DNA of 64,000 bases from Gammaproteobacteria bacterium (GCA_033344735.1 JAWPMW010000001.1:1182171-1246170); one strand, 5' to 3'. Positions 8,545 to 63,829 are shown, counted from the stretch's first letter. Notes: generated from the sequence alone by a model not told the origin. Translations and numbers: made by a program.

Positions 8545-8547
8545 TTA

Positions 8548-10090: not shown

Positions 10091-10140
10091 TATTATAACT
10101 GTCGCATCGTTAATAAATTAAACGCGACTGGAAGGACGAA

Positions 10141-11423: not shown

Positions 11424-11463
11424 TCACTAACCACCAATTATATTTCTTAATCTAACCGCGAAC

Positions 11464-11490
11464 AAAAACGGGGGCTAAGCCCCCGTTTTT
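11464..11490. terminator. Rho-independent terminator after tsf (bidirectional hairpin)
   Basis: A GC-rich 8 bp stem (acgggggc/gcccccgt) with a taa loop is flanked by A-run and T-run tracts. It lies 10 nt downstream of the tsf stop on the minus strand. Confidence 0.6.
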
Positions 11491-11500
11491 GTTGTTAAGC

Positions 11501-12382
11501 TTAGCCGTTCTTGACTTGAGCCATGACTTCTTCTGCGAAGTTCTCAGTCTTTTTCTCAATACCTTCGCCAACTTCATATCGATGGAATGAGATAACACTT
11601 GCTGAATTTTCTTTCAGTAATTTAGCAACTGACTTATCAGGATCTTTCACAAAAGGCTGACCCATCAATGTAATCTCACCAAGGAATTTCTTAATTTGGC
11701 CTGAAACCATTTTTTCAATGATCTCTGCAGGTTTGCCGCTGCTTTCAGCTTTAGCCATAAAGATATCTTTTTCTTTCTCTAGCACTTCCTCTGACACACC
11801 ATTTTCATCAATGCAGATCGGCTTACTTGCCGCAACATGCATCGCGATATCCTTGCACAGTTCGTCATTGCCGCCTTCCATTTCAACCATGACGCCGATA
11901 CGACTGCCATGCATATACTTTCCTAATGAGCCATTGCCTGAAGATACTTTTGTAAAGCGTCGAATTTGAATGTTTTCACCAATCTTACTAACCAAAGCAA
12001 GACGCGCTGATTCCACTGTTTCGCCACTAGCAAGTGTCGCATTCAATAATTCATCGACGTTTTCTAGATTCTGAGTCAATGCAGTAGATGCCACTTCATT
12101 ACTGAAGCTTAAAAAATTCTCATCTTTACCTACGAAATCAGTTTCACAGTTAACTTCAATAATGACACCGCTTTTAGCGTCGTCACTGATTGAAATAACC
12201 ACTGTACCTTCTGCAGCAACTCGAGAGGCTTTTTTATCAGCTTTAGCTTGCCCAGACTTACGCATTAGCTCGATAGCAGCTTCCATGTCACCGCCACTTT
12301 CAGTTAATGCCTTTTTACATTCCATCATGCCTGCGCCAGTACGCTCACGCAGTTCTTTAACCATTGAAGCAGTAATTTGCAT
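11501..12382 (-). CDS. tsf: Elongation factor Ts
   Basis: 293 aa starting MQITASMVKELRERTGAGMMECKKAL, the EF-Ts N-terminal UBA-like signature. Confidence 0.9.
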   Translation of the reverse strand: MQITASMVKELRERTGAGMMECKKALTESGGDMEAAIELMRKSGQAKADKKASRVAAEGTVVISISDDAKSGVIIEVNCETDFVGKDENFLSFSNEVASTALTQNLENVDELLNATLASGETVESARLALVSKIGENIQIRRFTKVSSGNGSLGKYMHGSRIGVMVEMEGGNDELCKDIAMHVAASKPICIDENGVSEEVLEKEKDIFMAKAESSGKPAEIIEKMVSGQIKKFLGEITLMGQPFVKDPDKSVAKLLKENSASVISFHRYEVGEGIEKKTENFAEEVMAQVKNG

Positions 12383-12412
12383 ATCTAAAACCCTATCTTG
12401 TAAATGTAACTT

Positions 12413-13300
12413 TTACTCTGCAGCATCTGCTGATTCAGAAGCATCTTTTTCCTCAGCTTTAGGCTCTTCAACTTTAGGCTTCCGTGCTGCTTTCTTTTTA
12501 ACCGCGACTTTCTTTTTAGCCACCTTCTTTTTAGGCTTAGGTGCTTCTTCAGATTCAGCTTTAGCTTTAGCCTCGTCCACTTCTACAAACTCATCTTCAT
12601 CACCAGTGAGTGTCTGTGAACTTGCTTTAGCCTCTATAATGGCTTCAGCAGTCGCCGACGCATATAATTGGATAGCACGTATTGCATCATCATTTCCAGG
12701 GATAACATAATCAACGCCTTCAAGGGGGTTGTTAGTATCAACAACAGCAACCACAGGAATGCCTAATTTCATCGCCTCTTTAATAGCAATTTCTTCGTAC
12801 CCAACATCGATCACGAATAATACATCCGGCAGCACATTCATATTTTTAATGCCACCCAAACTGCGGTGTAATTTTTCAACATCACGACGAATAGTCAGTA
12901 ATTCTTTCTTTCCAAGCCTTTCAGAGCCATTTCCCTCTAAAGTCTCTTCTTGATCCTTTAGACGCTTAATAGACTGCTTAACTGTATGGAAATTAGTCAG
13001 CATACCGCCTAACCAGCGGTGATTTACATAAGGCATACCACAACGCTCAGCTTCCGCTTTCACAGTATCGCGAGCAGAACGCTTTGTGCCTACAAAAAGC
13101 ACTTTGCCTCCATTAGCAGCCATTTTTCCTAGATAATTCAATGCATCGCCAAACATAGGTAGCGATTTTTCTAAATTGATAATATGGATCTTATTACGCT
13201 CCCCAAAGATATAGGGGGCCATTTTTGGATTCCAGTAACGGGTTTGATGCCCGAAATGCACGCCAGCTTCTAACATCTGGCGCATAGTGACGTCAGTCAT
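12413..13300 (-). CDS. rpsB: 30S ribosomal protein S2 with Lys/Ala-rich C-terminal extension
   Basis: 295 aa. The N-terminal ~235 aa match S2 ([19 protein letters not shown]...). The last ~55 aa form a low-complexity [20 protein letters not shown] tail. Confidence 0.9.
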
Positions 13301-13512
13301 GATATGTTACTCCTTAAGTAAGGGTTTTATACGTCCGCAGCCCCCATCCAGTAACCGATTGAGGATTTCTCCTGGCAATTGGCACCCCACTGAATGTGTC
13401 GAGCATGCGTGTAGATTTAAGATTTGCGCTTATCGCGCGCGCTTTATACCATAATCTGCTGGAATCAACAATTTAGAATCAAATAAAAAAGGATTTTGCT
13501 GACACATACATT

Positions 13513-14283
13513 ATGTCTATTCACATAAAAACACATGACGAAATAGAGAAGATGCGAGTTGCAGGACGATTAGCCTCTGAAGTCCTGCAAATGATTGGTG
13601 ATCATGTCAAACCCGGGGTCACTACTCAAAAATTAAACGATATTTGCCATGATTTCATTGTAAATACTCAAAAGGCTATTCCTGCTCCACTCAATTACAA
13701 AGGATTCCCACGCTCTGTATGCACATCAATTAATCACCAGGTGTGCCATGGTATTCCAGGCGATCGAGTACTCAAGGACGGCGATACTGTCAATATCGAT
13801 ATCACTGTGATTAAAGATGAATTTCACGGAGATACCAGCAAGATGTTCTATGTCGGCAAACCGACAGTTAAAGCACAGCGCTTAGTCGACCTGACCTACG
13901 AAGCCATGAGCACTGGTATAAAAATGGTCAAACCAGATGTCACACTAGGCGATATTGGTCATGCGATACAAACATTTGTAGAAAAGAATAACTGCTCAGT
14001 AGTTAGAGAATATTGTGGCCATGGTATAGGAAAAAATTTCCACGAAGATCCACAAGTCCTGCATTATGGCAAACCCAATAGTGGTGACAAATTAGTACCA
14101 GGCATGACGTTCACTATTGAGCCGATGGTCAACGCTGGTAAACGACATGTTCGCCTGCTGCCAGATCAATGGACAGTAGTCACAAAAGATCACAGCCTAT
14201 CTGCACAATGGGAGCATACAATTTTAGTTACAGATAATGGCTATGACGTATTAACGCGTCGCCCAGAAGAATCTTGGTCATAA
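13513..14283 (+). CDS. map: Methionine aminopeptidase type I
   Basis: 256 aa with the pita-bread fold metal ligands pattern (HGIPGDRVLKDGD...HGIG...). It is divergent from rpsB as in many proteobacteria. Confidence 0.9.
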   Translation: MSIHIKTHDEIEKMRVAGRLASEVLQMIGDHVKPGVTTQKLNDICHDFIVNTQKAIPAPLNYKGFPRSVCTSINHQVCHGIPGDRVLKDGDTVNIDITVIKDEFHGDTSKMFYVGKPTVKAQRLVDLTYEAMSTGIKMVKPDVTLGDIGHAIQTFVEKNNCSVVREYCGHGIGKNFHEDPQVLHYGKPNSGDKLVPGMTFTIEPMVNAGKRHVRLLPDQWTVVTKDHSLSAQWEHTILVTDNGYDVLTRRPEESWS

Positions 14284-40761: not shown

Positions 40762-41139
40762 TTATTCTACGGTGTTGGCATTAGAATAATTTGCGCCAGC
40801 ATTCATCTTTGAATACTCTTGCTCAACAAACTGCTTAAATTGCTGTGCTTTAAGCGTGTCAGACAGACTAAGCATTTGCATCAAGCCGTCCTTTGAAACA
40901 ATCATCATATCAATCCATGGATTTTTTGGGTTCTCTGGAGTATCAACACGAAATTTTTCTTTCTGGGTATCAGATAACTCTCTAGTAGCTACAGTGACGT
41001 TAGGTTTACCTGTACGACTATTAATAGCAAGACATACACAACGGCAGACATCTGCAGCAACAAACCACATGTCTCCAGTTTCTTGTTCGACCAGCCTAAT
41101 TTGGTGGCCCTCATATTCCATTATTGCAACACTACTCAC
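40762..41139 (-). CDS. Bro-N domain protein (phage antirepressor-like N-terminal domain only)
   Basis: 125 aa; the N-terminal ~75 aa (FEGHQIRLVEQETGDMWFVAADVCRCV...) follow the Bro-N consensus. It ends 343 bp before tRNA-Asn. The call rests on motif recognition only. Confidence 0.5.
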   Translation of the reverse strand: MSSVAIMEYEGHQIRLVEQETGDMWFVAADVCRCVCLAINSRTGKPNVTVATRELSDTQKEKFRVDTPENPKNPWIDMMIVSKDGLMQMLSLSDTLKAQQFKQFVEQEYSKMNAGANYSNANTVE

Positions 41140-50191: not shown

Positions 50192-50866
50192 ATGAAACGT
50201 TTAAAATCTCTAACACAGCAGCTTGGTTATTCATCAACTGCAAGTTATTTGATCTCTACAATGTTAGAAAAATTATTTGGGATCGAAATGCATCATTATC
50301 GATTTTATTCTCAGCCGGTTTATAAAACGCCAAGGGTTCCCACACACAAGCTTAATCGCTACAAATTTAGCTGGCTGAATAAACCAGAAAAAATTCTTGA
50401 TGAATTACAGCGCCCAAAACAAGTGATAGAAAATCGCTTTCAACAAGGCTCTGTCTGCCTGGTTGCAGAACAAAATGGCAAACTTCAAGGGTGCTTATGG
50501 TTAATAAAATCCAAGTACATAGAAGATCAAGTGCGAGCAACATATCATTTCCCTGAAAACGCCGTCTGGGATTACGATGTCTATGTCACACCCAAGAAAC
50601 GCTTTACCATTTTATTTGCCGCACTCTGGGATACCGCAGACACCTGGATGAAAGAACATAATTATGCAAGCAGCCTTAGCAGAATATCCGTAGAAAACGC
50701 TCCATCTATTCGCTCACACGAAACAGCTGGCGCAAAGCAAATTGGATGGATAATTGCAATAGTCATCAAGCATTGGCAAATTACTCTCTCGGACAAATCA
50801 CCAAAACTACATTTCTCCTCAAAAAACAACACTAACGGCCCAGATCTATATTTCACCAAGATTTGA
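50192..50866 (+). CDS. Hypothetical protein, possible GNAT-fold acyltransferase
   Basis: 224 aa, first gene after the core block. There is weak GNAT-like secondary-structure periodicity and no canonical Q/RxxGxG/A motif was found by eye. Family assignment is tentative. Confidence 0.35.
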   Translation: MKRLKSLTQQLGYSSTASYLISTMLEKLFGIEMHHYRFYSQPVYKTPRVPTHKLNRYKFSWLNKPEKILDELQRPKQVIENRFQQGSVCLVAEQNGKLQGCLWLIKSKYIEDQVRATYHFPENAVWDYDVYVTPKKRFTILFAALWDTADTWMKEHNYASSLSRISVENAPSIRSHETAGAKQIGWIIAIVIKHWQITLSDKSPKLHFSSKNNTNGPDLYFTKI

Positions 50867-51050: not shown

Positions 51051-52154
51051 TTATTTGATTCTCTTGTGTAAGCTTTCAACGACACGCTGAGCAGTTGCTC
51101 CGTCCCACAACTCTGGGCACTGACCTTGTTTCCAATCACCGGCCAAAACATTACTAACAGATACTGCGAGTACATCAGGCTTAATCAGCTGATTTGTCCC
51201 GTGAGTAATAGTAATTGGTCGTTCAGTATTCTCTCGCAAGGTAAGACATGGAATACCCAAATACGTCGTTTCTTCTTGAATGCCACCAGAATCAGTAATC
51301 ACAAGTTTTGACTGCGTGACTAGATTCATAAATTGAATATACCCCTGAGGCTCAATCACCAATATATTCGCCGCCTGTTCAAGTCTACTCATCATTCCAA
51401 AGTCTATTAACTTTTGGCGTGTTCTAGGGTGCACTGGGAATACTAATTGGCAATCTTCAGAAACCGCTAACAATTGATTAACAATCTCAGAAAGCGTTTG
51501 TTCGTTATCCACATTCGATGGGCGATGCATAGTTACCACAGCAAATTGATTCGCCATAAGGCCATGACTCTCAGCTGTATTATCATTTTCAATCTCCACA
51601 CGCATCATCTCGAATGAATCGATCATAATATTGCCGACGAGATCTACTTTATTATCATCAACACCTTCATGTTTAAGATTTTCATTTCCATCAATCGATG
51701 GCGTCCAAAGTAAATCTACGATTCTATCTGTAAGTACTCGATTTACTTCCTCTGGCATACGCATATCACCACTACGTAAACCCGCCTCTAAATGTGCAAC
51801 TGGTATCCATAATTTTGCGCCTACAAGCGCACATGCAATGGTGGGATTGACGTCACCCACGACAATGATCCAATCAGGACGATTCTCTATCACTATCTTT
51901 TCATACGCCATCATGACTTTGCCAGTTTGTTCAGCATGTGAACCACTACCCACCTCGAGATGAAAGTCTGGTTTTGGCATTTTCAAATCATCAAAAAATG
52001 CATCTGACATATTGGCATCGTAATGTTGCCCAGTATGTATCAAACTCGGTTTACACCAATCCGTCGCCGCCAACGCATGATACAAAGGCGCAATTTTCAT
52101 AAAATTTGGTCTAGCAGCAGCAATAAGATGGACATTAATCATTTCATTCAACAA
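51051..52154 (-). CDS. wecB: UDP-N-acetylglucosamine 2-epimerase (non-hydrolysing)
   Basis: 367 aa with near-colinear WecB/MnaA similarity (HLIAAARPNFMKIAPL, HTGQHYD, HLEAGLRSGD, PEEVNR). Confidence 0.85.
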   Translation of the reverse strand: MLNEMINVHLIAAARPNFMKIAPLYHALAATDWCKPSLIHTGQHYDANMSDAFFDDLKMPKPDFHLEVGSGSHAEQTGKVMMAYEKIVIENRPDWIIVVGDVNPTIACALVGAKLWIPVAHLEAGLRSGDMRMPEEVNRVLTDRIVDLLWTPSIDGNENLKHEGVDDNKVDLVGNIMIDSFEMMRVEIENDNTAESHGLMANQFAVVTMHRPSNVDNEQTLSEIVNQLLAVSEDCQLVFPVHPRTRQKLIDFGMMSRLEQAANILVIEPQGYIQFMNLVTQSKLVITDSGGIQEETTYLGIPCLTLRENTERPITITHGTNQLIKPDVLAVSVSNVLAGDWKQGQCPELWDGATAQRVVESLHKRIK

Positions 52155-52464: not shown

Positions 52465-54057
52465 ATGAATTTCCTACTACATTCAGCGCTTTTCAATCAG
52501 GCAATACACCGCCCTGATTCTATCGCCATAGAATACAAACAAGAAAAGATTAGCTACAGGGAGCTAAGCATGCTTGCTTCAGACTTTGCTGGAGGTTACT
52601 CCAATTTGGACTTACCAAAAGGCAGCAGAGTTGGAATTTTTTTAGCTAAACAAGTAGAAACAATTTCTGCCATCTTTGGCACTTTATTAGCGGGCGGCAG
52701 CATCGTCCCTGTCAACCCCATACTAAAAGCCAATCAAATTGAACACATTCTTTGTGATTGTGACGTCAGCATACTTGTCACAACTAAATCTCGTCTTAGA
52801 CAGATTGAAGGTGTAATAGACAATTGTCCAGCACTAAAAACAATAGTCCTAGTTGATCATGATGACTTAATTGATTCCCGCTCTTACCACAAACCTATTT
52901 CGAGCTGGCAAAATTTCTGCCAACAATACAATTCTGAAAAAGCACCAACCATTATTGAATCAGACCTTGCTGCAATTTTTTACACATCGGGTAGCACTGG
53001 AAAACCCAAAGGCGTGGTACTAACACATCACAATATGCATGTTGGCGCACAAAGTGTCGCGCAATATCAGAACAACAATAAACAAGATAGAATTCTAGCA
53101 GTCTTACCTTTTAGCTTTGACTATGGATTTAGTCAAATCACAACGGCCATAGTATCTGGAGCGACGGTTATATTATTAGATTACCTACTACCGAAAGATG
53201 TGATTAAAACTCTTGAGCGTACTAAAGCCACAGGATTAGCCGGCGTGCCTCCTTTATGGATGCAAATCACAAAGCTAGATTGGCCAAACAGCATTAAAGA
53301 TCATTTACGTTACATCACCAACTCTGGCGGAGCAATGCCACAAAGTACTTTATCCATTTTGCAAGAAAAACTGCCAAATACTGACATATATTTAATGTAT
53401 GGCTTAACCGAAGCATTTCGCTCAACATATTTACCGCCTGATCAAGTCAATACTCGCCCTACTTCTATGGGAAAAGCGATACCCAATGCAGAAATATTTG
53501 TTATTAACTCTGAAGGCGAAGAATGCAAGGCTGGCGAAGAAGGTGAATTAGTTCACCGCGGCCCATTAGTTGCACAGGGTTATTGGAATGACCCAGAAAA
53601 AACTTCTGAGCGTTACAAGCCGCTACCATCATCTCTATGTGATGGGCGCACAGTAACAGAACTTGCAGTATGGTCCGGAGATTCTGTTAAGAAAGATGAA
53701 GAAGGTTATCTATATTTTGTTAGCCGTACAGATGAAATGATTAAAACATCTGGCTACCGAGTGAGCCCTACAGAGATTGAAGAGACTCTTTTACTCCTCG
53801 ATAATGTCAGTGAAGCTGTCGCAATGGGTATACCTCACTCAGAACTAGGACAAGCTATTGTAGTCGTAGCCACTAGCAATTCAAAAAGCACAGATTTGGT
53901 AAAAGAAATTACTTCTTCACTCAAAAAACAATTACCACCCTACATGCTGCCACAGAAAATATTCATCCGTGACGAGTTACCTCGCAATGCCAATGGTAAA
54001 TTTGATCGCAAACAGATGTATATCGAATGTGAAAACACGTTTAGCAAATCACAATGA
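52465..54057 (+). CDS. AMP-forming acyl-CoA/acyl-ACP ligase (adenylate-forming enzyme)
   Basis: 530 aa with adenylation core motifs YTSGSTGKPKGV, YGLTEA, GEL...RGP...GY, SGD...DEEGY...R.DE.IKTSGYRVSPTEIE and PRNANGKFDRK. Confidence 0.8.
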   Translation: MNFLLHSALFNQAIHRPDSIAIEYKQEKISYRELSMLASDFAGGYSNLDLPKGSRVGIFLAKQVETISAIFGTLLAGGSIVPVNPILKANQIEHILCDCDVSILVTTKSRLRQIEGVIDNCPALKTIVLVDHDDLIDSRSYHKPISSWQNFCQQYNSEKAPTIIESDLAAIFYTSGSTGKPKGVVLTHHNMHVGAQSVAQYQNNNKQDRILAVLPFSFDYGFSQITTAIVSGATVILLDYLLPKDVIKTLERTKATGLAGVPPLWMQITKLDWPNSIKDHLRYITNSGGAMPQSTLSILQEKLPNTDIYLMYGLTEAFRSTYLPPDQVNTRPTSMGKAIPNAEIFVINSEGEECKAGEEGELVHRGPLVAQGYWNDPEKTSERYKPLPSSLCDGRTVTELAVWSGDSVKKDEEGYLYFVSRTDEMIKTSGYRVSPTEIEETLLLLDNVSEAVAMGIPHSELGQAIVVVATSNSKSTDLVKEITSSLKKQLPPYMLPQKIFIRDELPRNANGKFDRKQMYIECENTFSKSQ

Positions 54058-55289
54058 TTAAAAAAACATTAGAACATCATTCTCCTCTAAACTTCTACAC
54101 TGTAGAAGATCATTGCTTAGTGATAGGAAATCAGAAATTCACTAATATATTGTCACAACATAAAGATGTCCCTGCTTACATCTATGACAGTTCAGTAATC
54201 AAACAGAAAATAGACTCCCTTCGAAAAGTTCTACCTGAATCCATGCATATTCATTATGCAATCAAAGCTAATCCAATGCCTGATGTTGTTAACTATGTAC
54301 AAGGTTTGGTAGAAGGATTGGATGTTGCCTCCGGCTTAGAATTAAAAGTCGCATTAGCTAGCGGCATGGACCCTAAAGAAATTAGCTTTGCCGGCCCCGG
54401 TAAAAGCATTGAAGAATTAACGCTCGCAATTAATAGCGGCATTACAATCAATTTAGAATCAGAAACCGAACTAGATCGCGCTACCATAATTGGCGAGCAA
54501 TTAGGCATAACACCACGCGTTGCTCTTCGCATTAATCCTGATTTTGAACTAAAAACATCAGGCATGAAAATGTCTGGAGGGCCTAAGCAGTTTGGTGTCG
54601 ACGCTGAAATCGCCACGGATATTATTAAAAAAATTCTCGACTATAAATTAGAATTCATAGGGCTTCATATCTTCAGCGGTTCACAAAATTTAAAATATGA
54701 AGCATTAATTGAAGCACAGACAAAGACATTTGCATTAGCCTCAAATCTAGCAGAACAGTCTGGCACAGAATTTTCCAAACTAAACATTGGTGGAGGTTTT
54801 GGTATTCCATATTTCCCAGGTGAAAAGCCACTACCTTTAGAACCAATTGGTGAGAACCTGCATTCTTTACTCGAACAATACGCAAGCCAATTTGGTAACA
54901 CATCAATAATCACAGAGCTGGGACGTTTTATAGTAGGAGAATCAGGCGTATACATATCCAAAGTTATAGATAAGAAAGTTTCACGTGGAAGTACTTTCTT
55001 AATTATCAATGGTGGCTTACATCACCATTTAGCAGCCAGTGGTAATTTTGGGCAAGTTATCCGCAAAAATTATCCTGTGACTGTTGCAAATAAAATTGGC
55101 TTAGAGACAGAAAAGGCTAGCGCTGTTGGCCCACTATGCACACCACTCGATGTCCTAGCACAGGATATGGAATTACCCAAAGCTGAAATAGGTGATTATG
55201 TGGCAGTATTTATCTCAGGCGCATACGGATATACATCCAGCCCGTTAAATTTCTTAAGTCATCCTCATCCGATTGAGATTTTTATTTAG
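54054..55289 (+). CDS. PLP-dependent decarboxylase, Orn/DAP/Arg decarboxylase (fold III) family
   Basis: 411 aa with HYAIKANP (PLP lysine), NIGGGFGIPY, ELGRFIVGESG and GPLCTPLD motifs. Its start overlaps the ligase stop (ATGA). Confidence 0.8.
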   Translation: MIKKTLEHHSPLNFYTVEDHCLVIGNQKFTNILSQHKDVPAYIYDSSVIKQKIDSLRKVLPESMHIHYAIKANPMPDVVNYVQGLVEGLDVASGLELKVALASGMDPKEISFAGPGKSIEELTLAINSGITINLESETELDRATIIGEQLGITPRVALRINPDFELKTSGMKMSGGPKQFGVDAEIATDIIKKILDYKLEFIGLHIFSGSQNLKYEALIEAQTKTFALASNLAEQSGTEFSKLNIGGGFGIPYFPGEKPLPLEPIGENLHSLLEQYASQFGNTSIITELGRFIVGESGVYISKVIDKKVSRGSTFLIINGGLHHHLAASGNFGQVIRKNYPVTVANKIGLETEKASAVGPLCTPLDVLAQDMELPKAEIGDYVAVFISGAYGYTSSPLNFLSHPHPIEIFI

Positions 55290-56164
55290 GAATTTACGAA
55301 ATTTAAAGTAATCTGCTCAACTTCAGATCTTAATTTCCGAGAAGAAAATGTGTGGTCTGCCTCATCTATATAGTGGATAACTGTTTTTGATCTATTAAAT
55401 TCATCAAGCAGCCAATCATTTTCATCTAGCATTTGCTTAAATTCATCAGCAACTAAATCTTTACCACTAAGAATCAAGCAAATAGACCCATTAAAATTTG
55501 ACATTCCTCTAAACACTGCTTCTGCAATATTTTCTTCTCTATCGGCAATAGGTATTACCTGATGCGCATCAAATTTTGATTTGTTGGACCTGCTACTTAA
55601 GATCTTAAAAACTATATTACCCAAAGAAAATATCGCTTTTGATATCTTACTTGGCGACAATAATAATTGCTTCCATACTTCGATGCTAAACAAGCGCTCG
55701 CGATAGTAACTATGCAGAATGGCTTTAGAGTGACTCGTCTCACTCCTAACCCATGGATTCAATAATACAACACCTTTAATGCGATCATCAGTGTAGGCAG
55801 TAAATGAAATTGCAGCGGCGGCATCACACAACCCCCATAGATAAACTTCATCTAAATTACACTCATGATTAAAAACAAAATCTATTGCCACTTTGACATC
55901 ATCATCAATTTCATAGAACTGTTTAGAGATTCCCTGACTATAGCCCATGCCAGTATAATCAAACCTGAGCGCTAAAATTCCTTGTGCAGCTAAGCATCTT
56001 GCCAAAAGTGCAAATTGTCGATGACTGCCAACTCTATACTGAGGACCACCCACAACAATAATAACTGCAGCCTTTGCTTCTACTTCAGGAACCGATAAGA
56101 TGCCATATAGATCGCGCCCATTCATCGAAAAGCTTACTGGTTTTTCGAAATAACTCTGACTCAT
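55286..56164 (-). CDS. Alpha/beta-hydrolase-fold protein 1 (dienelactone-hydrolase-like)
   Basis: 292 aa with an IIVVGGPQY...FDYTGMGYSQG region and the candidate nucleophile elbow LWGLCDAAA. Its stop overlaps the decarboxylase stop convergently by 3 nt. Confidence 0.65.
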   Translation of the reverse strand: MSQSYFEKPVSFSMNGRDLYGILSVPEVEAKAAVIIVVGGPQYRVGSHRQFALLARCLAAQGILALRFDYTGMGYSQGISKQFYEIDDDVKVAIDFVFNHECNLDEVYLWGLCDAAAAISFTAYTDDRIKGVVLLNPWVRSETSHSKAILHSYYRERLFSIEVWKQLLLSPSKISKAIFSLGNIVFKILSSRSNKSKFDAHQVIPIADREENIAEAVFRGMSNFNGSICLILSGKDLVADEFKQMLDENDWLLDEFNRSKTVIHYIDEADHTFSSRKLRSEVEQITLNFVNS

Positions 56165-57003
56165 TACGCAAACACCCGCTTAGTTTCGCGCAACAATATC
56201 GGCGATATCGTGACTTCTTGTTGCATCCAAAATTTAACATCATTTACTGCATGCAAAGACAATTTTGCTAATAAATGCTCGTCGAGTTTAGACTTTGACA
56301 AACATATTGGTAACTGTGTTTTAGTGCCGTTTATAGATTTGCCAGTCGTCATCCAGTGCAGATCAGTTAAGGAAAGCACAGCTTGTATATAATCGTTAAT
56401 GTTTTTTGATTTGATTGTATTGAGCAACTCCGATGAAATATGATAACCACCTACCTCTAAAAAGCCAGATCCCTCTATTTCTTCCAAGACCTCTTTAGTA
56501 GTAATTTTTTTCAAATCTCCGGCCATTGCGGCTGCAATTTTCATGCGAATTAATTGTCGAACTAATGCTTCCCCGTTATCAACGGGATCCCACAAAACAC
56601 ATTTATTGATTTGAATATCTGATTGCTCAATCAAATTAAGAGAAATTAACGCACTATCACGCAAGCACACTAAGCTAATTTTTGAAGCAAATTTTTCAGA
56701 TAATTTATAAATATCAAGTAGATTATTTTTCCAAGCATCATAATTAAACTCCCCCCATTCTCCTGAACTGTCGCCAGTGCCTGCAAAATCAAAGCATATT
56801 GAATGGATGCCTGCATCTGCTAATAAACGCGCGCATAGTACATACATTCTTTTTGAACGATTCATTTCCTCGGCAAAGGGAGGCACAAATATGACAACCT
56901 GGGCGTCCCGCACAGCTGCACTTTGCTCGAATGGAGCATAGTGCGCTAAGAATATTTGGGAATTTTGACTTGAAGGAAGGAATTGGAAATCAGTTGTGTG
57001 CAA
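56164..57003 (-). CDS. Alpha/beta-hydrolase-fold protein 2
   Basis: 279 aa paralogous in architecture to the upstream gene (VIFVPPF...FDFAGTGDSSG...LVCLRDSAL). It shares 1 nt with the start/stop of the adjacent gene. Confidence 0.6.
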   Translation of the reverse strand: MHTTDFQFLPSSQNSQIFLAHYAPFEQSAAVRDAQVVIFVPPFAEEMNRSKRMYVLCARLLADAGIHSICFDFAGTGDSSGEWGEFNYDAWKNNLLDIYKLSEKFASKISLVCLRDSALISLNLIEQSDIQINKCVLWDPVDNGEALVRQLIRMKIAAAMAGDLKKITTKEVLEEIEGSGFLEVGGYHISSELLNTIKSKNINDYIQAVLSLTDLHWMTTGKSINGTKTQLPICLSKSKLDEHLLAKLSLHAVNDVKFWMQQEVTISPILLRETKRVFA

Positions 57004-57005
57004 CC

Positions 57006-57257
57006 TTAGTTTTCCATTTTTGCGACTATTTGATTTCGCAGTGTTCCTACTGTTTCGAACACTTCAGCATCTAATTCATCATCATCAAAGACAATGCCGA
57101 AGCGATCTTCTATTGAGGTAATAATGCCAACTATTGCCATGGAATCTAACTCAGGAATGGCTCCAAGTAATGGCGCCTCTTCACTCATTTGATGTATCTG
57201 AGCGGCACCATCTAGCGATTCTGCCAACACATCTAGCACTTGTTCTAGTTCAACCAT
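57006..57257 (-). CDS. Acyl carrier protein
   Basis: 83 aa acidic four-helix protein with a phosphopantetheine-attachment motif (LGAIPELDSMAIVGI). It lies 2 nt upstream of hydrolase 2. Confidence 0.7.
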   Translation of the reverse strand: MVELEQVLDVLAESLDGAAQIHQMSEEAPLLGAIPELDSMAIVGIITSIEDRFGIVFDDDELDAEVFETVGTLRNQIVAKMEN

Positions 57258-57282
57258 ATTTAAATCTAACCAAATTACAGAA

Positions 57283-57969
57283 TTAATTTGCTATGTTTTG
57301 AGAAACAGTCTTATCCCAAACACCTTTTCTAATCAATTTATTTTTCAATCCAGGCAAAGGATACCCTAGCTCATAAGCTCTATGCCCATGCTTAACCGCC
57401 ATACTTAAATGATTAGTATCCACATAATATAATCCAAAATTATAATGAGCCTCAGCTGAATCTGGATTTATCTCGAGCGCCTTTTGGTATTGCATTTTCG
57501 CCTTACCAAGACTTCCCTTACGATGAAGATAAGTTGCGTATATTAAACGCACAATACCATCATTTGGTTTGAAAACTATAGCACGATTAAAGAAACATTC
57601 TACAGAAATTGAATCACCCATTTTTTCAATTGCATTTTCAACCTGAAACTCATACTTAGATATTGAAGTTAACGCTCTATGATGATTTGGGAACACTCTT
57701 AACACATACTCCAAGTCACCATAAACACTACTAGTCTTACCTTTAACCAAAGACTCAACATCAGTATCAAAGTGGTGATACTCAACTAAATAGCCATGTT
57801 CCTTATAAACATTATAGTCAGTATAATCAAATGGCCCATGGTGGTTATCTAGACTTCCACATGCTCCTCCACCCAAACCTTGCTCCTCATTTGCAACCGC
57901 AGATTGCAAATAAAATAGTGCAACCAATAACACTAAGATAGTAGAAGTGTACTTATATTTCATTGCCAA
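57283..57969 (-). CDS. Secreted His-rich protein with C-terminal TPR repeats
   Basis: 228 aa with a signal peptide (…LQSAVA|NEE). Histidine-rich middle region (HHGPFDY, EYHHFD, FPNHHRA). TPR-like helices at AKMQYQKALEINPDSAEAHYNFGLYY. No family recognised. Confidence 0.5.
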   Translation of the reverse strand: MAMKYKYTSTILVLLVALFYLQSAVANEEQGLGGGACGSLDNHHGPFDYTDYNVYKEHGYLVEYHHFDTDVESLVKGKTSSVYGDLEYVLRVFPNHHRALTSISKYEFQVENAIEKMGDSISVECFFNRAIVFKPNDGIVRLIYATYLHRKGSLGKAKMQYQKALEINPDSAEAHYNFGLYYVDTNHLSMAVKHGHRAYELGYPLPGLKNKLIRKGVWDKTVSQNIAN

Positions 57970-58303
57970 GCCTCTTTTAAACTGTTGTTTCGCAATTATA
58001 AAGCTTTAAGCCACTCCGTTCATCGACCTAGGCCCTAGCTTAAGCATTTATAGCGTGAATTCCATCAAATTATCAGCAAAAATGACGCTATTACACAGCC
58101 AATCAATTCACTGATTATTTATATTTAATATTCACTGGCAATCTAACAAACATGGCCCCATACAATCTAATAATGTGTCACACTTCAGACAAATTCCACT
58201 AACAGAACTCAAGCTTTCAGGGACCGCCTCTTTCTCTCTAATCATCATATATTAGAATAGACTCAGCAATTTATCGTTCAACTTAATCGCATAAAATTAC
58301 TAG

Positions 58304-60136
58304 ATGAAACAATTTATCTTTACTGGATGGACTGTCAACAATGCTGATCAGGACTCTAAATTATTAGGCCATCTTGACAATTCTGAAAACAAAATTTCTC
58401 AGTCAAAAATAGATCAGTGGAATCACTCAGCTGCCTGGACATCCCCTAGCGAGCTAGTAATCCACCACAAATTTGATGACATTACCCTCAGCTTATGTGG
58501 CAGACCTACGATTAGCATTAACGATGATGGATCATTTCAAACCATAAAAACTGAACATCAACTAAATGGGCTGGTACAAGAATACAAGAAACATGGATAT
58601 CATTTTCTCAGAAAACTAAATGGTAGTTTCTCATTAATTTTATTCGATGCACGCAAACATATAACTATATTAGCTGTCGATCGCATGGGCATAGAGCAAA
58701 TGCATTATGCGACTATTTCTGGTGGTTTATTTTTTAGTAGCTCTCTAAAATCTTTAAGCAATTTACCAAGCATTCCTAAAAATATTTTTCCGCAATCTGT
58801 TTACAATTATTTTTACTTTCACTGTATTCCAAGTCCCAATACTATTTTCCAGGATTTATACAAGTTAAAGCCTGCCGAGGTATTGATCTTTAAAAATGGA
58901 TCAAGCTCTAAAGATACATACTGGACACCGGAATTTAATGAAAAACTCTCAACATCTGTAGACACTCTCCAATCTGATGTAAGAGAATCATTAGACTCAA
59001 CAATGCGAGAATTATCTGCAGATCCTAAGACAGGAGCATTCTTAAGCGGTGGTACAGATAGTTCTACACTCTCTGGGTTATTAAAAAAACATCACCCTAC
59101 AGACGCACCTGCTTTCTCTATTGGCTTTGAAGAACAAGGTTATGACGAAATGGGATTCGCTGATATAGCGGTCAATAAATTTCAAAACAAGCATTATAAG
59201 TATTATGTCAATTTTGACGATGTCCTAAAGCTATTCAACGAAATACCTAAAATATACGAAGAGCCTTTTGGAAACTCATCAGTCGTTCCAACATTTGCTG
59301 CTGCACAATTAGCAAAGAAAAATGGTGTTGACCATATGATTGGTGGCGATGGTGGTGATGAAATTTTTGGCGGTAACGATCGCTATGCCACACAAAAATT
59401 ATTTAACATTTATAGCTCTGTACCAAAATGGGTGCGCGAAATCATTCTTGAACCAAGCTTTTGCAATTCAGTCGCAGGCTCATTACCCATCGCTAAGAAA
59501 GCAAAGAGCTATATTGAACAAGCAAAAATTTCTATGCCTAAACGTATGCAAACATACAATATATTGCATATGCAGCAACCCAGTTCGATATTCGACAGCC
59601 ATTATCTTGGAGAAATTAATAGCAATTACCCCATAGATTTATTAAGTGAAACTTACAACGAAATACAGGATGCTTCACTATTAAATAAAATGTTGTACTT
59701 AGACTGGAAATTTACCCTGGCTGATAATGACTTGCGTAAAGTAAATACCATGTGTCGTGCAGCTGGCGTCGAAGTTTCATATCCGTTTTTAGATAATCGA
59801 GTTGTGGAAAGCTCGACAAAAGTGCCTTCCAAACTTAAGATCAAAGGAATGAGATTACGCGCATTCTACAAAGACACTTACAGTTCCTTACTACCTCCAG
59901 AAATAATCACTAAATCCAAGCACGGGTTTGGCTTGCCATTTGGAGTATGGCTGAAGAAAGATAGCCGCTTACAAAATGAAGTCTATGGCGCACTAACAAA
60001 TCTAAAAACAAGATCTATGTTTCAAGATAAATTCATTGATGATTTAATTGAAAAGCACCGCTCTGAACACGCGGCTTATTATGGAACATTTGTCTGGGTC
60101 TTAGCAGTGCTAGAGCGCTGGTTAGACGCTCAATAA
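58304..60136 (+). CDS. Asparagine synthetase-family amide synthetase lacking the N-terminal catalytic Cys
   Basis: 610 aa with the PP-loop SGGTDSS and an AsnB synthetase domain. A degenerate glutaminase-like N-domain is present, but the protein starts MKQF (no Cys2), and an in-frame TAG lies immediately 5' of the ATG. Confidence 0.8.
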   Translation: MKQFIFTGWTVNNADQDSKLLGHLDNSENKISQSKIDQWNHSAAWTSPSELVIHHKFDDITLSLCGRPTISINDDGSFQTIKTEHQLNGLVQEYKKHGYHFLRKLNGSFSLILFDARKHITILAVDRMGIEQMHYATISGGLFFSSSLKSLSNLPSIPKNIFPQSVYNYFYFHCIPSPNTIFQDLYKLKPAEVLIFKNGSSSKDTYWTPEFNEKLSTSVDTLQSDVRESLDSTMRELSADPKTGAFLSGGTDSSTLSGLLKKHHPTDAPAFSIGFEEQGYDEMGFADIAVNKFQNKHYKYYVNFDDVLKLFNEIPKIYEEPFGNSSVVPTFAAAQLAKKNGVDHMIGGDGGDEIFGGNDRYATQKLFNIYSSVPKWVREIILEPSFCNSVAGSLPIAKKAKSYIEQAKISMPKRMQTYNILHMQQPSSIFDSHYLGEINSNYPIDLLSETYNEIQDASLLNKMLYLDWKFTLADNDLRKVNTMCRAAGVEVSYPFLDNRVVESSTKVPSKLKIKGMRLRAFYKDTYSSLLPPEIITKSKHGFGLPFGVWLKKDSRLQNEVYGALTNLKTRSMFQDKFIDDLIEKHRSEHAAYYGTFVWVLAVLERWLDAQ

Positions 60137-60217: not shown

Positions 60218-61528
60218 CTATTTAGTTATCGCCATATTCATAGCAGGCAACATTTTACCGCCTGAATTTACAGGCAACTCAGTTTCTTGCATTCGCCGCT
60301 TGTGGAGCAACGTCGACATGGCTATACCGATACCTATCAGTGCGTACAGCAAATCAAACTTTGCCATCTCCAAGAACAACCCGGCAACCATATAACCAAC
60401 GATACTTACTTGAATCATCGCGGCCAAATCTCGCATCCAAATCATATCCTCATATTTAGGCGCAGTTTTTATGATATATCCCATAGTGCGATATAAAACT
60501 ATCAGTAACATTGTGAAGATAATAAGCCCCACCCATCCATGCTCACCCAATGACTCAAAATAAATACTATGCGGGCCAGCCCATTGCACTTCAGGTCTCT
60601 CAGAGTACTTATTAAATAACTCCTCTGTAAAAGTACTATAGCCACCGCCAAATATAGGATAATCATTAGCAAGATTGATTGAAAACTCCCAAGCATTAAT
60701 TCTCATCATTGCTGATTCATCTTCTTGATAGTTTTTAATCGTATCCATTCGATCATGCCAACTCTGTGGCATAAATACAAAGAGCAATGGTGCAAGAATA
60801 ATAACAACTGCTGCCACTTTAAACTTTGCTTTGCTTTTCATAACTAAGAAACCAGTCATTGCTATCAATGCTAGGAACCCACCTCTTGATTGGGTACCCA
60901 AAATCGCAAACGCAGTCAATATCATCAGCATCAGCGACGAATGCCTAAATAGTTTCTTTTCTGCCTGCGTATGTAGATACCACATCAATGGAAGCACCAT
61001 TACTAGTGCAAGACTAAGTGCATTGTTATCAGCGATAAAAGATTCTGAAGGACCCCAAACACGGAAAGCCCCAGCATTCACAAGGGTGAATATACCTCCC
61101 TTGAGACCAAAATAACCTAAAGAAAGTGCAATTGTTGCAACCAAGGCATTAACTTTATTTTTATCACTTACCATAAATATCATTAACGCAACCATAGTAA
61201 TAATCTTTAAAAAGTTAACCCATTGCGCCATAGCCTCTTCTGGATAAATTGCCATGCTTGTAGTAATGGAAACCCATCCGGCATATAAAATCAGCATCCA
61301 CAGTAGCCCGGAACCTTTAGGCATGATTTTATCTTTATAATATAGAAAGGCAATTATCGTAATTAGGCCAATCATTTTTGAAAATGGGAAATCATACGCA
61401 AACCCAAAACAAAGTCTGTGAGGATTCATAAAACCCAACCAACTCCATACTAAAATGCCCACATAAGGTCTGAACAAAATGAATGGAATGAAACCAAAAA
61501 CGATTAAAGTTAGCAGTATATCTCGCAT
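60218..61528 (-). CDS. Wzy/O-antigen-ligase-like polytopic membrane protein
   Basis: 436 aa with ~10-12 hydrophobic helices and a larger periplasmic loop, the architecture of the O-antigen ligase/polymerase (Wzy_C) family. Confidence 0.6.
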   Translation of the reverse strand: MRDILLTLIVFGFIPFILFRPYVGILVWSWLGFMNPHRLCFGFAYDFPFSKMIGLITIIAFLYYKDKIMPKGSGLLWMLILYAGWVSITTSMAIYPEEAMAQWVNFLKIITMVALMIFMVSDKNKVNALVATIALSLGYFGLKGGIFTLVNAGAFRVWGPSESFIADNNALSLALVMVLPLMWYLHTQAEKKLFRHSSLMLMILTAFAILGTQSRGGFLALIAMTGFLVMKSKAKFKVAAVVIILAPLLFVFMPQSWHDRMDTIKNYQEDESAMMRINAWEFSINLANDYPIFGGGYSTFTEELFNKYSERPEVQWAGPHSIYFESLGEHGWVGLIIFTMLLIVLYRTMGYIIKTAPKYEDMIWMRDLAAMIQVSIVGYMVAGLFLEMAKFDLLYALIGIGIAMSTLLHKRRMQETELPVNSGGKMLPAMNMAITK

Positions 61529-61553: not shown

Positions 61554-62522
61554 TTAATTAGCGTACTGCACATAGCCGCGCGCCAAAGAAACACCAAATT
61601 TAAATTTGCTCGTATGGTCAATGCTAATTCTAGGTAGATCAAACATACCCATACTCTTATCTATAACACCATTATTTGTCGTTAATGCCGCATTAAAACC
61701 GGCCTCCTCAACAAACTGCATGTGTCGTTCATCATAATCCTTATCGGCTTGCCCATTAGGGTAAGCAAAAAACTTTAACTTCTTATTTAATATATTTTCT
61801 AAGTACAACTTACCTTCAACAATTTCCTGTCGCACTTCATCTTCGTCCGCACAAGTCATAATAGGATGATTAACAGTATGTCCACCAATCTCCATGCCGG
61901 CATTTGATAGTGCTTTTACTTCATCTTCTGTCATCATTAAACGCTCAGATAATTCAACTTCAGCAAGCTGCCTTAATCGATCAACTAATTCTATGCGTCG
62001 ACTAACACTGTTATATTTAATATAACCAAGCAATTTTTCTATTAGCTGTAATTTCTTCAATTCAGTATTTATTGAAACCTTACCCAAGGAAAACTCATGC
62101 AAATCCAGCTCTCTAAATGAGGTATATTTAATTGTCTGTCTAACAACATCATTCCACATCACACCATCACCCAAGTATCCAGTAGCAATAAAAAACGTAG
62201 CGTGTAAATTTAATGCTGACAAAATTGGTAAGGCAACATCATAATTATCACGATAACCATCATCAAATGTCACGCATACAGAGCCAGCTGGTAATGTTCC
62301 TTGTCGCATTTGTTCCAAACCAGACTCTAAACTGACAACATTAAAGTACTCCGCCAAAGTTTCCATTTGCCGAGTAAACTGAACTGAATCAACCTCATCT
62401 ATTACAGGATCATAGTCTGCAAGCACACGGTGATAGGTAAGCACCAGCAATTTATTATTTGCTCGATGACCTGATAATGCTCCCACTGTCTGCTGGAAAA
62501 TTGGCCTTAATACTCTGTTCAC
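61554..62522 (-). CDS. NodB-type polysaccharide deacetylase
   Basis: 322 aa with NodB motif 1 TFDDGYRDNYD and a His motif GGHTVNHP. Confidence 0.8.
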   Translation of the reverse strand: MNRVLRPIFQQTVGALSGHRANNKLLVLTYHRVLADYDPVIDEVDSVQFTRQMETLAEYFNVVSLESGLEQMRQGTLPAGSVCVTFDDGYRDNYDVALPILSALNLHATFFIATGYLGDGVMWNDVVRQTIKYTSFRELDLHEFSLGKVSINTELKKLQLIEKLLGYIKYNSVSRRIELVDRLRQLAEVELSERLMMTEDEVKALSNAGMEIGGHTVNHPIMTCADEDEVRQEIVEGKLYLENILNKKLKFFAYPNGQADKDYDERHMQFVEEAGFNAALTTNNGVIDKSMGMFDLPRISIDHTSKFKFGVSLARGYVQYAN

Positions 62523-62602: not shown

Positions 62603-63829
62603 TCACACTTTTACAAAAGTTGCATGTCTATCTTGCGCTTTCTTATATAAATCCACATAACCAAAAACACTCTTCTTCCAATTACGCTCAGCTTTCACAT
62701 ACTTTCGTGCCCAGCCAGAAAATAAGGCTTTCAATGGCTTATTAGCTACTGTTGACTGTAAAGCATCTGATAAGGCCTCAACCGATCCCGCATCAAATAA
62801 AACCGAATGAAGCCGCTCTGGCAACAGCTCTACATGACCTCCCACATTTGACGCAATAAATACCTTGCCCATTGCCATAGCCTCTAGAGGTTTTAATGGC
62901 GTAACAATATCCGTAAGTCGTGCTGGTTTACGTGGATAAACCAGCACATCAATTAAGTCATAATAAGCTTCTACCTCAGAATGTGGCACGCGACCGGTGA
63001 ATATAATTTTGTCTTGCATGCCCAACTCACTTACTAAGTCACGCAGTTTTTCATCCTCAGGTCCACCACCAACGAGTAAACCCTTAACATTTAAATCACT
63101 ATCGCGCATTGCATGTAGCGCTTTTACAAATAGCTCCAAACCCTCATATGCGTAAAAGGAACCAATAAACCCTGCAACATAACTATTCCCTAGCTTATAT
63201 TTTTCACGCAAATTTTCTTGAATAGTAGACTCACCTTCAAACTCCTCTGCATTAACCGCATTAGGAATCACCTGTATAGGCGTCTGACCAATACTTCTAC
63301 TGGTAATATCATTTTTTAATCCATTACAGATAGTCGTTATCCCATGCACTCTTTTAAACACAAACGTTTCTAATGCACGTGTTAAACGATAACGAAAACT
63401 ACCCTCAGTTGTAGTGCCATGTTCAACTGCAGCATCTTCCCAAGATGCACGCATTTCATATACAACAGGAATAGAAAATTTCTTGGCCGCATTTATTGCC
63501 GCAATGCCATTCAGACATGGAGAATGCGCATGAATAATATCTGGCTTCTCACGTTCAATTACATCAGTCACACGTTTTTGCAAACTGCTAATCACATACA
63601 ACTGATTAATAATTGGAATTCTTGACAGCAATTTATTCTTATCTTCTGTTCTGTAAAATTTCAGATTGTCATGCACCTCCTCATCTCCCTGAGGATTTAT
63701 ATGTTTAATACCAGTAACATGCGTGGTTTCCCAGCCTAGCTTGGCTTGTTCATTAAGAATAGAACAAGTACGAAACGTGTACCCGCTATGCAGAGGTATA
63801 GAATGATCTAATACATGTAATATTTTCAT
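62603..63829 (-). CDS. GT4-family glycosyltransferase (GT-B fold)
   Basis: 408 aa with a C-terminal EAMAMGKVFIASNVGGHVELL nucleotide-sugar binding region typical of GT4/RfaG-like enzymes. Confidence 0.8.
   Translation of the reverse strand: MKILHVLDHSIPLHSGYTFRTCSILNEQAKLGWETTHVTGIKHINPQGDEEVHDNLKFYRTEDKNKLLSRIPIINQLYVISSLQKRVTDVIEREKPDIIHAHSPCLNGIAAINAAKKFSIPVVYEMRASWEDAAVEHGTTTEGSFRYRLTRALETFVFKRVHGITTICNGLKNDITSRSIGQTPIQVIPNAVNAEEFEGESTIQENLREKYKLGNSYVAGFIGSFYAYEGLELFVKALHAMRDSDLNVKGLLVGGGPEDEKLRDLVSELGMQDKIIFTGRVPHSEVEAYYDLIDVLVYPRKPARLTDIVTPLKPLEAMAMGKVFIASNVGGHVELLPERLHSVLFDAGSVEALSDALQSTVANKPLKALFSGWARKYVKAERNWKKSVFGYVDLYKKAQDRHATFVKV

Follow-up and report, generated by a model that had tools for sequence, protein, structure and literature searches.

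A ligase, decarboxylase, carrier protein and hydrolase pair at an exosortase A-associated exopolysaccharide locus: a candidate carrier-protein pathway for an omega-amino acyl group

Close counterparts of the gene cassette considered here have been described in antibiotic biosynthesis. In the vicenistatin pathway, VinN loads 3-methylaspartate onto the carrier protein VinL, and VinO decarboxylates the amino acid only after the thioester has been formed (PMC11284099). The same logic applies to BtrJ/I/K, CtaD/E/F and FlvN/L/O and leads to a 4-aminobutyryl- or beta-alanyl-carrier (PMC11350588). In this work, we analyzed a stretch of 64,000 nucleotides from a Gammaproteobacteria bacterium (GCA_033344735.1, JAWPMW010000001.1:1182171-1246170), in the following termed the window, with positions counted from its first letter. 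It contains a cassette of genes for a ligase, a decarboxylase, two alpha/beta-fold proteins named hydrolase 1 and hydrolase 2, a dedicated carrier protein, a tetratricopeptide repeat (TPR) protein and an AsnB-like protein. As a set of families the cassette is already known and named by NCBI. Judged from the sequences, there is in our estimation an even chance that it encodes a carrier-protein pathway for the synthesis and delivery of an omega-amino acyl group. The genes of the cassette are the following:

52465-54057, plus strand: ligase (ligase_PEP_1), a stand-alone adenylation enzyme matching TIGR03098, PF00501 and PF13193
54054-55289, plus strand: decarboxylase (dCO2ase_PEP1), a pyridoxal phosphate (PLP) enzyme matching TIGR03099
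55286-56164, minus strand: hydrolase 1, alpha/beta fold with a Cys-Asp-His triad, matching TIGR03100
56164-57003, minus strand: hydrolase 2, alpha/beta fold without nucleophile or His, matching TIGR03101 below the cut-off
57006-57257, minus strand: dedicated carrier protein of 83 residues, with a weak match to PF00550 (21 bits)
57283-57969, minus strand: TPR protein with a signal-peptide-like N-terminus and TPR Pfam matches, first gene of the carrier/hydrolase run
58304-60136, plus strand: AsnB-like amide synthetase with a degenerate glutaminase domain, matching PF00733 (235 bits)

In a preliminary description of this DNA, six of these open reading frames (ORFs) had been recognized, and all six were recovered here at these positions together with their family calls. 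In agreement with that description, the adenylation motifs of the ligase and the DSM site of the carrier protein are intact, the AsnB-like protein lacks an N-terminal cysteine, and an ATGA in which the ligase stop and the decarboxylase start overlap is read directly in the window sequence. The proposal of a self-contained six-gene block, on the other hand, held for the reality of the genes and not for their arrangement, as the seventh gene, encoding the TPR protein, had been omitted and the block is more than one operon. Ligase and decarboxylase on the plus strand are convergent with a minus-strand run in the order TPR protein, carrier protein, hydrolase 2 and hydrolase 1, and the AsnB-like and TPR genes point away from each other. 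At 55286-55289 the stop codon of the decarboxylase gene (TAG, plus strand) overlaps that of the hydrolase 1 gene (TAA, minus strand), which leaves no space for a terminator between the two convergent operons. Junctions within the minus-strand run are tight, and the stop codon of hydrolase 2 and the start codon of hydrolase 1 share one base in the sequence TAATG. Matches to the sigma-54 promoter consensus were not enriched (42 found, 37.6 expected).

Family membership was judged by the curated NCBIfam/TIGRFAM cut-offs, i.e., 592.35 bits for TIGR03098, 478.45 bits for TIGR03099, 168.45 bits for TIGR03100 and 202.75 bits for TIGR03101. In hidden Markov model searches the ligase (718.5 bits over its full length), the decarboxylase (555.2 bits) and hydrolase 1 (256.5 bits) qualified as members of the respective exosortase A families, whereas hydrolase 2 with 167 bits did not. 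The latter otherwise fits the TIGR03101 family: it is encoded between the carrier protein and the adjoining hydrolase 1 as elsewhere, it contains every invariant column including R115, and homologues retrieved with it bear the name "hydrolase 2, exosortase A system-associated". Its public annotation ("hypothetical protein R8G33_06290", 240 residues) starts 39 codons too late, because homologues of 272-283 residues align from the TTG at position 57003 and the shorter version would lack conserved N-terminal strands. An NCBI entry with 100% identity to hydrolase 1 is termed "hydrolase 1, exosortase A system-associated" and stems from a gammaproteobacterial metagenome-assembled genome. All four models, TIGR03098 to TIGR03101, are hypothetical-equivalog models without assigned chemistry. 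Literature searches by family number or by the phrase "exosortase A system-associated" returned essentially nothing on the cassette; its genes are not mentioned by Haft (2006), and a Burkholderia paper lists a TIGR03100 match and nothing else on it. As far as the literature was searched, neither the mechanistic reading given below nor the pair of Cys- and Arg-containing hydrolases with its natural fusions has been described.

With E-values down to 1e-216, chance is excluded as a source of the family matches. The explanation that ordinary housekeeping enzymes (LysA, FadD, esterases, AcpP and AsnB) have become neighbors by chance retains a negligible probability and is effectively refuted. It could draw on weaker matches to lysA, fadD and asparagine synthase models, yet these all fall under the curated cut-offs, whereas the exosortase-associated models score above theirs for three of the proteins. 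In addition, the gene order is conserved in alpha-, beta- and gammaproteobacteria and in one Acidobacteriaceae genome.

The ligase contains the motifs YTSGSTGKPKG, YGLTE and NGKFDR. Compared as a whole, it is similar to non-ribosomal adenylation domains, with LgrA (263 bits) ahead of VinN (183 bits). For the pocket residues 190-345, VinN, CmiS6 and IdnL1 lead the matches among solved structures and HitB ranks lower; each of the four loads beta-amino acids onto carrier proteins as a stand-alone enzyme. The pocket aligns to that of VinN without any gap, such that D218 corresponds to D230, Y219 to F231, the serine of the sequence TNS to S299 and R319 to R331, whereas alignment with the alpha-amino-acid domains of LgrA requires a gap of 1-2 residues after the sequence TEA. 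This difference fits the shortened beta13-beta14 loop described for VinN. In the latter, D230 binds the amino group of the substrate, which is pushed toward this loop by F231 and S299, and for 3-methylaspartate the decisive residues within the loop are K330 and R331 (PMC11253843). Among 68 homologues of the ligase, SFDyG and LMYGLTEAFRST are kept and the equivalents of D, Y and R are conserved, and the position equivalent to S299 is variable. We infer that the ligase adenylates amino acids and accommodates a substrate with an amine as VinN does, and that it is not a fatty-acid ligase; with long-chain fatty-acid-CoA ligase models it reaches 303 bits, far below their cut-offs. Our best guess for the substrate is L-aspartate, activated at its beta-carboxyl group, with glutamate or a substituted aspartate as further possibilities.

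The decarboxylase belongs to the Orn/DAP family, and among solved structures its best relative is BtrK (257 bits, as opposed to 180 bits for the best diaminopimelate decarboxylase), which decarboxylates L-glutamate bound to the carrier protein BtrI. It has GG[LM]HHH..AS and CTP.D in common with BtrK where the diaminopimelate enzyme from Aquifex has GMNDLIRPSIY and CETGD. Likewise, the LysA motifs GxNDxxRPxxY and CE[ST]GD are replaced by GGLHHHLAASGNF and CTPLD. In diaminopimelate decarboxylases, the segments at these positions bind the distal end of diaminopimelate. That the protein could be the lysA product of the organism, an identity raised in the preliminary description, is not borne out by the LysA model TIGR01048, against which it scores 248.4 bits and thus below the cut-off of 297.9 bits. 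BtrK, SbnH, MccE and FigC form one clade with diaminopimelate and D-ornithine decarboxylases and act on amino acids conjugated to a larger partner (PMC7857480). The decarboxylase of the cassette is predicted to act in a similar way, namely on a carrier-bound amino acid. Since neither VinO nor FlvO has a solved structure, aspartate cannot be distinguished from glutamate as the substrate at this step.

The carrier protein presents its phosphopantetheine site in the sequence PELDSM, with Ser39 invariant in 18 orthologues. Its best solved match is 2LKI (119 bits, E-value 5e-34), and further matches comprise VinL, HitD, aminoacyl carrier proteins and DltC. The 2LKI protein is itself an orthologue of this carrier and was deposited as a "putative uncharacterized protein", i.e., a structure exists without an assigned function.

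Three features typical of modules of the Btr/Vin/Flv/Cta type are found together in the cassette: a decarboxylase closer to a carrier-dependent enzyme than to free-substrate decarboxylases, a VinN-type ligase pocket and a stand-alone carrier protein with Ser39. The trio of ligase, carrier protein and decarboxylase fits the load-then-decarboxylate precedent. VinN/VinL/VinO and the fluvirucin proteins FlvN/FlvL/FlvO likewise combine a stand-alone adenylation enzyme of the ANL type, a stand-alone carrier protein and a PLP-dependent decarboxylase of the Orn/DAP family. In contrast to these systems, which reside in antibiotic clusters of actinomycetes, the cassette is part of a proteobacterial exopolysaccharide locus, it lacks a polyketide synthase, a second adenylation enzyme (VinM), the acyltransferase VinK and the peptidase VinJ, and delivery would fall to the pair of Cys- and Arg-containing hydrolases. 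From the butirosin system (BtrI/BtrJ/BtrK/BtrH), BtrK is the nearest solved relative of the decarboxylase, whereas BtrJ is an ATP-grasp enzyme and not an ANL ligase, and no homologues of the transferase BtrH, the hydroxylase BtrO/V or BtrG were identified in the analysis of the cassette. The Dlt system for D-alanylation of teichoic acids resembles the cassette in that an adenylation enzyme (DltA) and a small dedicated carrier protein (DltC) provide an amine-bearing acyl group for a surface polymer. The DltA and DltC models match the cassette proteins weakly; the Dlt system has no decarboxylase, and homologues of DltB or DltD were not identified in the analysis of the cassette.

As the best model, we propose the following sequence of events for the cassette. 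The ligase would hold an acidic amino acid with the amino group at Asp218 and the alpha-carboxylate at Arg319, adenylate the side-chain carboxyl group and transfer it as a thioester to Ser39 of the carrier protein. The BtrK/VinO-type enzyme would then strip the free alpha-carboxyl group on the carrier, such that beta-alanyl- or 4-aminobutyryl-S-carrier would result. Hydrolase 1 would accept the acyl group as a thioester on Cys113 and hand it to an acceptor, and hydrolase 2 would serve as a non-hydrolytic partner subunit that binds either donor or acceptor. The weakest step concerns the acceptor itself, which would probably be an amine or hydroxyl group of a sugar in a cytoplasmic, lipid- or nucleotide-linked repeat unit, so that the polymer would finally bear a free primary amine. 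This type of acceptor has a parallel in butirosin formation, where an amino sugar receives the amino acyl group from the carrier in N-linkage.

A different chemistry had been put forward in the preliminary description, according to which the ligase charges the carrier protein with a plain carboxylic or fatty acid, a free amino acid is separately turned into a free amine by the decarboxylase, and the hydrolases and the AsnB-like protein join both to a uronic acid or another sugar. We consider this scheme unlikely. It is consistent with the matches of the ligase to long-chain fatty-acid-CoA ligase models, and with the intact synthetase domain of the AsnB-like protein that, being devoid of the glutaminase cysteine, could accept an amine from outside; moreover, lipopolysaccharides with amines in amide linkage to uronic acids are known. 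However, the amino-group-binding aspartate of the ligase is invariant, its pocket is VinN-like and the scores with fatty-acid ligase models are far under the cut-offs, all of which speaks against a plain carboxylic acid. A free amino acid as the substrate of the decarboxylase is disfavored because its closest solved relative is carrier-dependent and its motifs differ from those of diaminopimelate decarboxylase at both compared segments, and the coupling of the ligase and decarboxylase genes suits consecutive steps on one substrate. The part assigned to the AsnB-like protein in that scheme was derived from synteny. The earlier chemistry was thus partly right in its outcome, as both schemes end with an amine-bearing acyl decoration on a polymer, and probably wrong in its mechanism, i.e., in assuming a separate acid and a free amine instead of decarboxylation on the carrier.

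The proteins that would deliver the acyl group form an unusual conserved pair, a Cys-nucleophile alpha/beta hydrolase and a partner with an invariant arginine at the nucleophile position. In hydrolase 1, the position of the esterase serine is occupied by Cys113, which together with Asp236 and His271 is invariant in 38 diverse sequences. The protein therefore deviates from the Ser-Asp-His triad of serine alpha/beta hydrolases (S33 / Hydrolase_4), and we predict it to be a thioester-dependent acyl transferase. In hydrolase 2, R115 aligns with the esterase serine and the C-terminal histidine is absent. The residues R115, R153, Y187, W259 and D72 each occur in 150 out of 150 representatives with pairwise identities of no more than 50%, which indicates a conserved site of a different kind and not decay. 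A structure model of hydrolase 2 was obtained with a predicted local distance difference test (pLDDT) value of 89.5 and a predicted template modeling (pTM) value of 0.90. Searches with the models of both hydrolases returned folds of generic esterases that do not discriminate function. In 36 of the 150 representatives, hydrolase 2 and hydrolase 1 are naturally fused to one protein of about 570-670 residues, with the gene order kept and the cysteine present in every one of the 36; these fusions support a physical complex of the two proteins. Hydrolase 2 is thus a probable partner subunit of hydrolase 1. An apparent fusion in another locus (L061) was rejected as a probable frameshift in a nanopore-based assembly, the C-terminus of hydrolase 2 being replaced by out-of-frame-looking sequence.

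Alternatively, the two hydrolases could act as an oligomerase like PhaC or the closthioamide enzyme CtaG and condense carrier-bound omega-amino acyl units to a short oligo-amide before, or instead of, a single transfer. Polyhydroxyalkanoate (PHA) synthases also have a Cys-Asp-His triad on an alpha/beta fold, and the two-subunit or fused architecture of the hydrolases is conserved. Carrier-bound beta-alanine feeds the closthioamide pathway (PMC11350588). The sequence and fold matches of the hydrolases, however, are small S33 esterases rather than PhaC, and we regard an oligomerase as very unlikely.

The AsnB-like protein starts with MKQFIFTGW, and its ORF cannot be extended upstream, such that there is no N-terminal cysteine. 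Many members of its family begin with MSG[LI]CGW, the cysteine of which is exchanged for threonine in the window and for glycine, tyrosine or serine elsewhere, while the PP-loop synthetase domain is intact. Against TIGR03108, the model for WbpS-type amidotransferases of exosortase A (XrtA) systems, it reaches 291.8 bits at a cut-off of 816.9 bits, and the match starts at about model position 95. Orthologues encoded near the decarboxylase behave in the same way (about 280-300 bits, with the first approximately 100 model positions unmatched). By these sequence criteria the protein represents an unmodelled subfamily and not the canonical XrtA amidotransferase, and it probably forms an amide without using glutamine. 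The TPR protein contains a conserved N-terminal part outside the repeats (CG.L...YGPFDYR ... VE.AHFT ... FPNHHRAL) that is covered by no known family; C37, H66, F67, P94 and N95 are invariant across 11 orthologues.

Conservation of the cassette was assessed in 80 genome loci from gamma-, beta- and alphaproteobacteria and one Acidobacteriaceae genome. The loci were anchored on decarboxylase homologues with 51-60% identity and scanned with local profiles. Gene counts were taken from the 41 loci with full flanks of 10 kilobases (kb) and refer to these flanks. All-against-all clustering of ORFs was polluted by shadow ORFs in high-GC genomes and served only to choose representatives. The ligase gene lies directly upstream of the decarboxylase gene in 40 of the 41 loci, a coupling that is expected if both enzymes act in succession on one substrate. 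Of these loci, 17 contain hydrolase 1, 16 hydrolase 2 and 12 the TPR gene, and the AsnB-like gene occurs in 21/41, often immediately after the decarboxylase gene. Wherever hydrolase 1 is located away from a contig edge, it is contiguously preceded by the carrier protein and hydrolase 2. Three loci anchored on hydrolase 1 contain the carrier-hydrolase 2-hydrolase 1 block with genes for a FemAB-like protein (Acetyltransf_6) and a DegT-like aminotransferase alongside; genes of both kinds recur next to this block. The unit thus consists of two tightly conserved modules, ligase-decarboxylase and carrier-hydrolase 2-hydrolase 1, in a looser XrtA neighborhood that comprises prsK/prsR, a priming glycosyltransferase, a flippase and TIGR03694. 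Co-conservation as claimed in the preliminary description applies to each of the two modules, and the six genes all occur together in only part of the loci. In one metagenomic locus (L085), a gene on the plus strand (10871-13324) between hydrolase 1 and the decarboxylase encodes a heparinase-like lyase of 817 residues (HepB model, 117 bits), which hints at polymer degradation within the same locus.

Several points weigh against a pathway for an omega-amino acyl group. The carrier gene is found within 10 kb of the decarboxylase gene in just 21 of the 41 full-flank loci, and carrier protein, hydrolase 2 and hydrolase 1 together within this distance in 15/41. Every step of the mechanism was deduced from sequence. 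The identity of the substrate hangs on four pocket residues of the ligase, and the residue corresponding to K330 of VinN is phenylalanine. With regard to the decarboxylase, the first rank of BtrK may simply reflect the absence of VinO and FlvO from the solved structures, and the cysteine triad of hydrolase 1 would equally suit a thioesterase or an oligomerase. Neither a VinM-like protecting-group enzyme nor a second ANL or ATP-grasp gene was found between 50 and 64 kb of the window; one might speculate that the AsnB-like protein or the GNAT-like protein listed below fills the amine-protecting role, which elsewhere belongs to VinM or to the second reaction of BtrJ. Finally, a literature search for beta-alanine substituents of exopolysaccharides was negative, and it brought up no report of an XrtA-type polysaccharide that bears a beta-alanyl or aminobutyryl group.

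To its left, the cassette is preceded by housekeeping genes (pheST, infC, thrS, uvrB, pyrF, rpsA, cmk, aroA, tyrA and pheA). Among the housekeeping genes, between an aminotransferase and a nucleotidyl transferase gene, an isolated ORF of 125 residues with a BRO-N domain is located at 40762-41139 on the minus strand; BRO-N domains are typical of proteins from phages and mobile elements. The genes that flank the cassette most closely are the following:

50192-50866, plus strand: divergent GNAT-like protein with a weak match to PF00583, a possible accessory N-acyltransferase
51051-52154, minus strand: UDP-GlcNAc 2-epimerase (wecB), divergent from the ligase gene; TIGR00236, 301.5 bits at a cut-off of 210
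60218-61528, minus strand: exosortase A-associated putative O-glycosylation ligase of the Wzy_C type; TIGR03097, 455 bits at a cut-off of 188
61554-62522, minus strand: CE4-type polysaccharide deacetylase, same family type as VimE, with partial matches to the IcaB, PgaB and PdaB models
62603-63829, minus strand: XrtA/PEP-CTERM glycosyltransferase stp3; TIGR04063, 545.7 bits at a cut-off of 442

On its right side the cassette is followed by the O-ligase-like protein, the deacetylase and stp3. The neighbors matching TIGR03097 and TIGR04063, with 455 and 546 bits, confirm the proposed association with XrtA/PEP-CTERM exopolysaccharide loci, and they constitute the whole of the XrtA-specific evidence inside the window, which stops within the locus. 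As judged from these neighbors, the cassette is placed at the left boundary of an XrtA/PEP-CTERM exopolysaccharide locus that continues past the window end. In relatives with 94% and 78% decarboxylase identity the gene order is the same as in the window, and the former runs on into another glycosyltransferase gene and then into a gene for a FemAB-like protein. The counterpart of the CE4 deacetylase in the loci L082 and L083 matches PF01522. In L082 a FemAB-like gene begins just past the point that corresponds to the window end; this gene was not scored against TIGR03019, and the relative for which TIGR03019 is confirmed by score is L081 (424.8 bits). The latter (88% decarboxylase identity) keeps an intact ligase, decarboxylase and carrier protein (96% identical) in addition to the FemAB-like gene, and from its region 7500-13600 wecB, the two hydrolases, the larger part of the TPR gene and the stretch from the AsnB-like to the glycosyltransferase gene have disappeared. 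L081 was considered and rejected as a minimal unit, because the DNA alignment revealed several deletions with gene remnants and thus a decaying locus, and it was not used as evidence. Genes for homologues of the GNAT-like protein adjoin carrier or ligase genes in several loci. Its invariant residues are Y36, Q41, R82, C89, W103, E111, R115, D127, S163, R164 and H176, its profile weakly matches aminoglycoside 6'-N-acetyltransferase (E-value 0.0065), and it could be a further component of the cassette.

It has to be considered whether the cassette, instead of decorating a polymer, supplies the PrsK/PrsR two-component system with a small diffusible or regulatory molecule, which could be an N-acyl amine or a released omega-amino acid. 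In about 15 loci prsK and prsR are located directly upstream of the ligase gene, and the exosortase-associated acyltransferase TIGR03694 recurs in 11 loci. On the other hand, any regulated operon would equally be expected beside regulators, and in the window and its close relatives the neighboring genes encode a glycosyltransferase, an O-ligase-like protein and a deacetylase, with no prsK/prsR nearby. We thus deem a regulatory product highly doubtful.

If the cassette decorates a polymer, its locus invites comparison with the type IX secretion system, in which an amide bond joins the cargo to a uronic sugar with a 2-N-seryl or 2-N-glycyl group (Veith et al., 2020; PMC7468200). The C-terminus of the sorted proteins becomes attached to the free amine of this modified sugar. 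Formation of this sugar involves the CE4 deacetylase VimE, the TIGR03019-matching, FemAB/GNAT-like transferase VimA and the AsnB-type protein WbpS, and a comparable sugar modified with an amino acid has been suggested, as a speculation, for PEP-CTERM systems (Veith et al., 2020; PMC7468200). The same types of proteins, i.e., a CE4 deacetylase, a FemAB-like and an AsnB-type protein, surround the cassette in the locus of the window and its relatives. The Wbp/Vim pathway differs in that it has no ligase, carrier protein, decarboxylase or hydrolase pair and uses serine or glycine as the amino acid, and the AsnB-like protein of the cassette falls outside TIGR03108. None of WbpA/B/E/D turned up in the window; genes for DegT-like aminotransferases are present in other loci. 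The cassette would provide an amino acyl donor that is bound to the carrier and has a free primary amine. This donor could serve the pair of hydrolase 2 and hydrolase 1, the FemAB-like TIGR03019 protein, or both of them. By context and by analogy we tentatively propose, as a possible though rather improbable extension, that the cassette installs the acceptor nucleophile for exosortase A. In this case, an unhindered primary amine, that of a beta-alanyl or 4-aminobutyryl group, would be placed on a sugar of the lipid-linked repeat unit and XrtA would resolve its acyl-enzyme with the cleaved PEP-CTERM proteins onto this amine, thereby tethering them covalently to the polymer. Analogies are provided by rhombosortase, for which the counterpart would be glycerophosphoethanolamine, by the type IX secretion system with its 2-N-seryl or 2-N-glycyl sugars, and by sortase, which uses Lipid II amines.

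The protein families of the cassette are widespread. At least 8000 decarboxylase homologues were scored, hydrolase 2 is represented by 1885 representative clusters at E-values up to 1e-30, and the hosts include floc-forming, nitrifying and marine proteobacteria. Decarboxylation of a carrier-bound amino acid, as suggested here, gives the cassette a concrete chemistry that is testable by mass spectrometry. If it holds true, a mechanism from antibiotic pathways would be extended to cell-surface polymers, and should the product prove to be an amine handle of the polymer, a direct test of what PEP-CTERM proteins are attached to would become possible.

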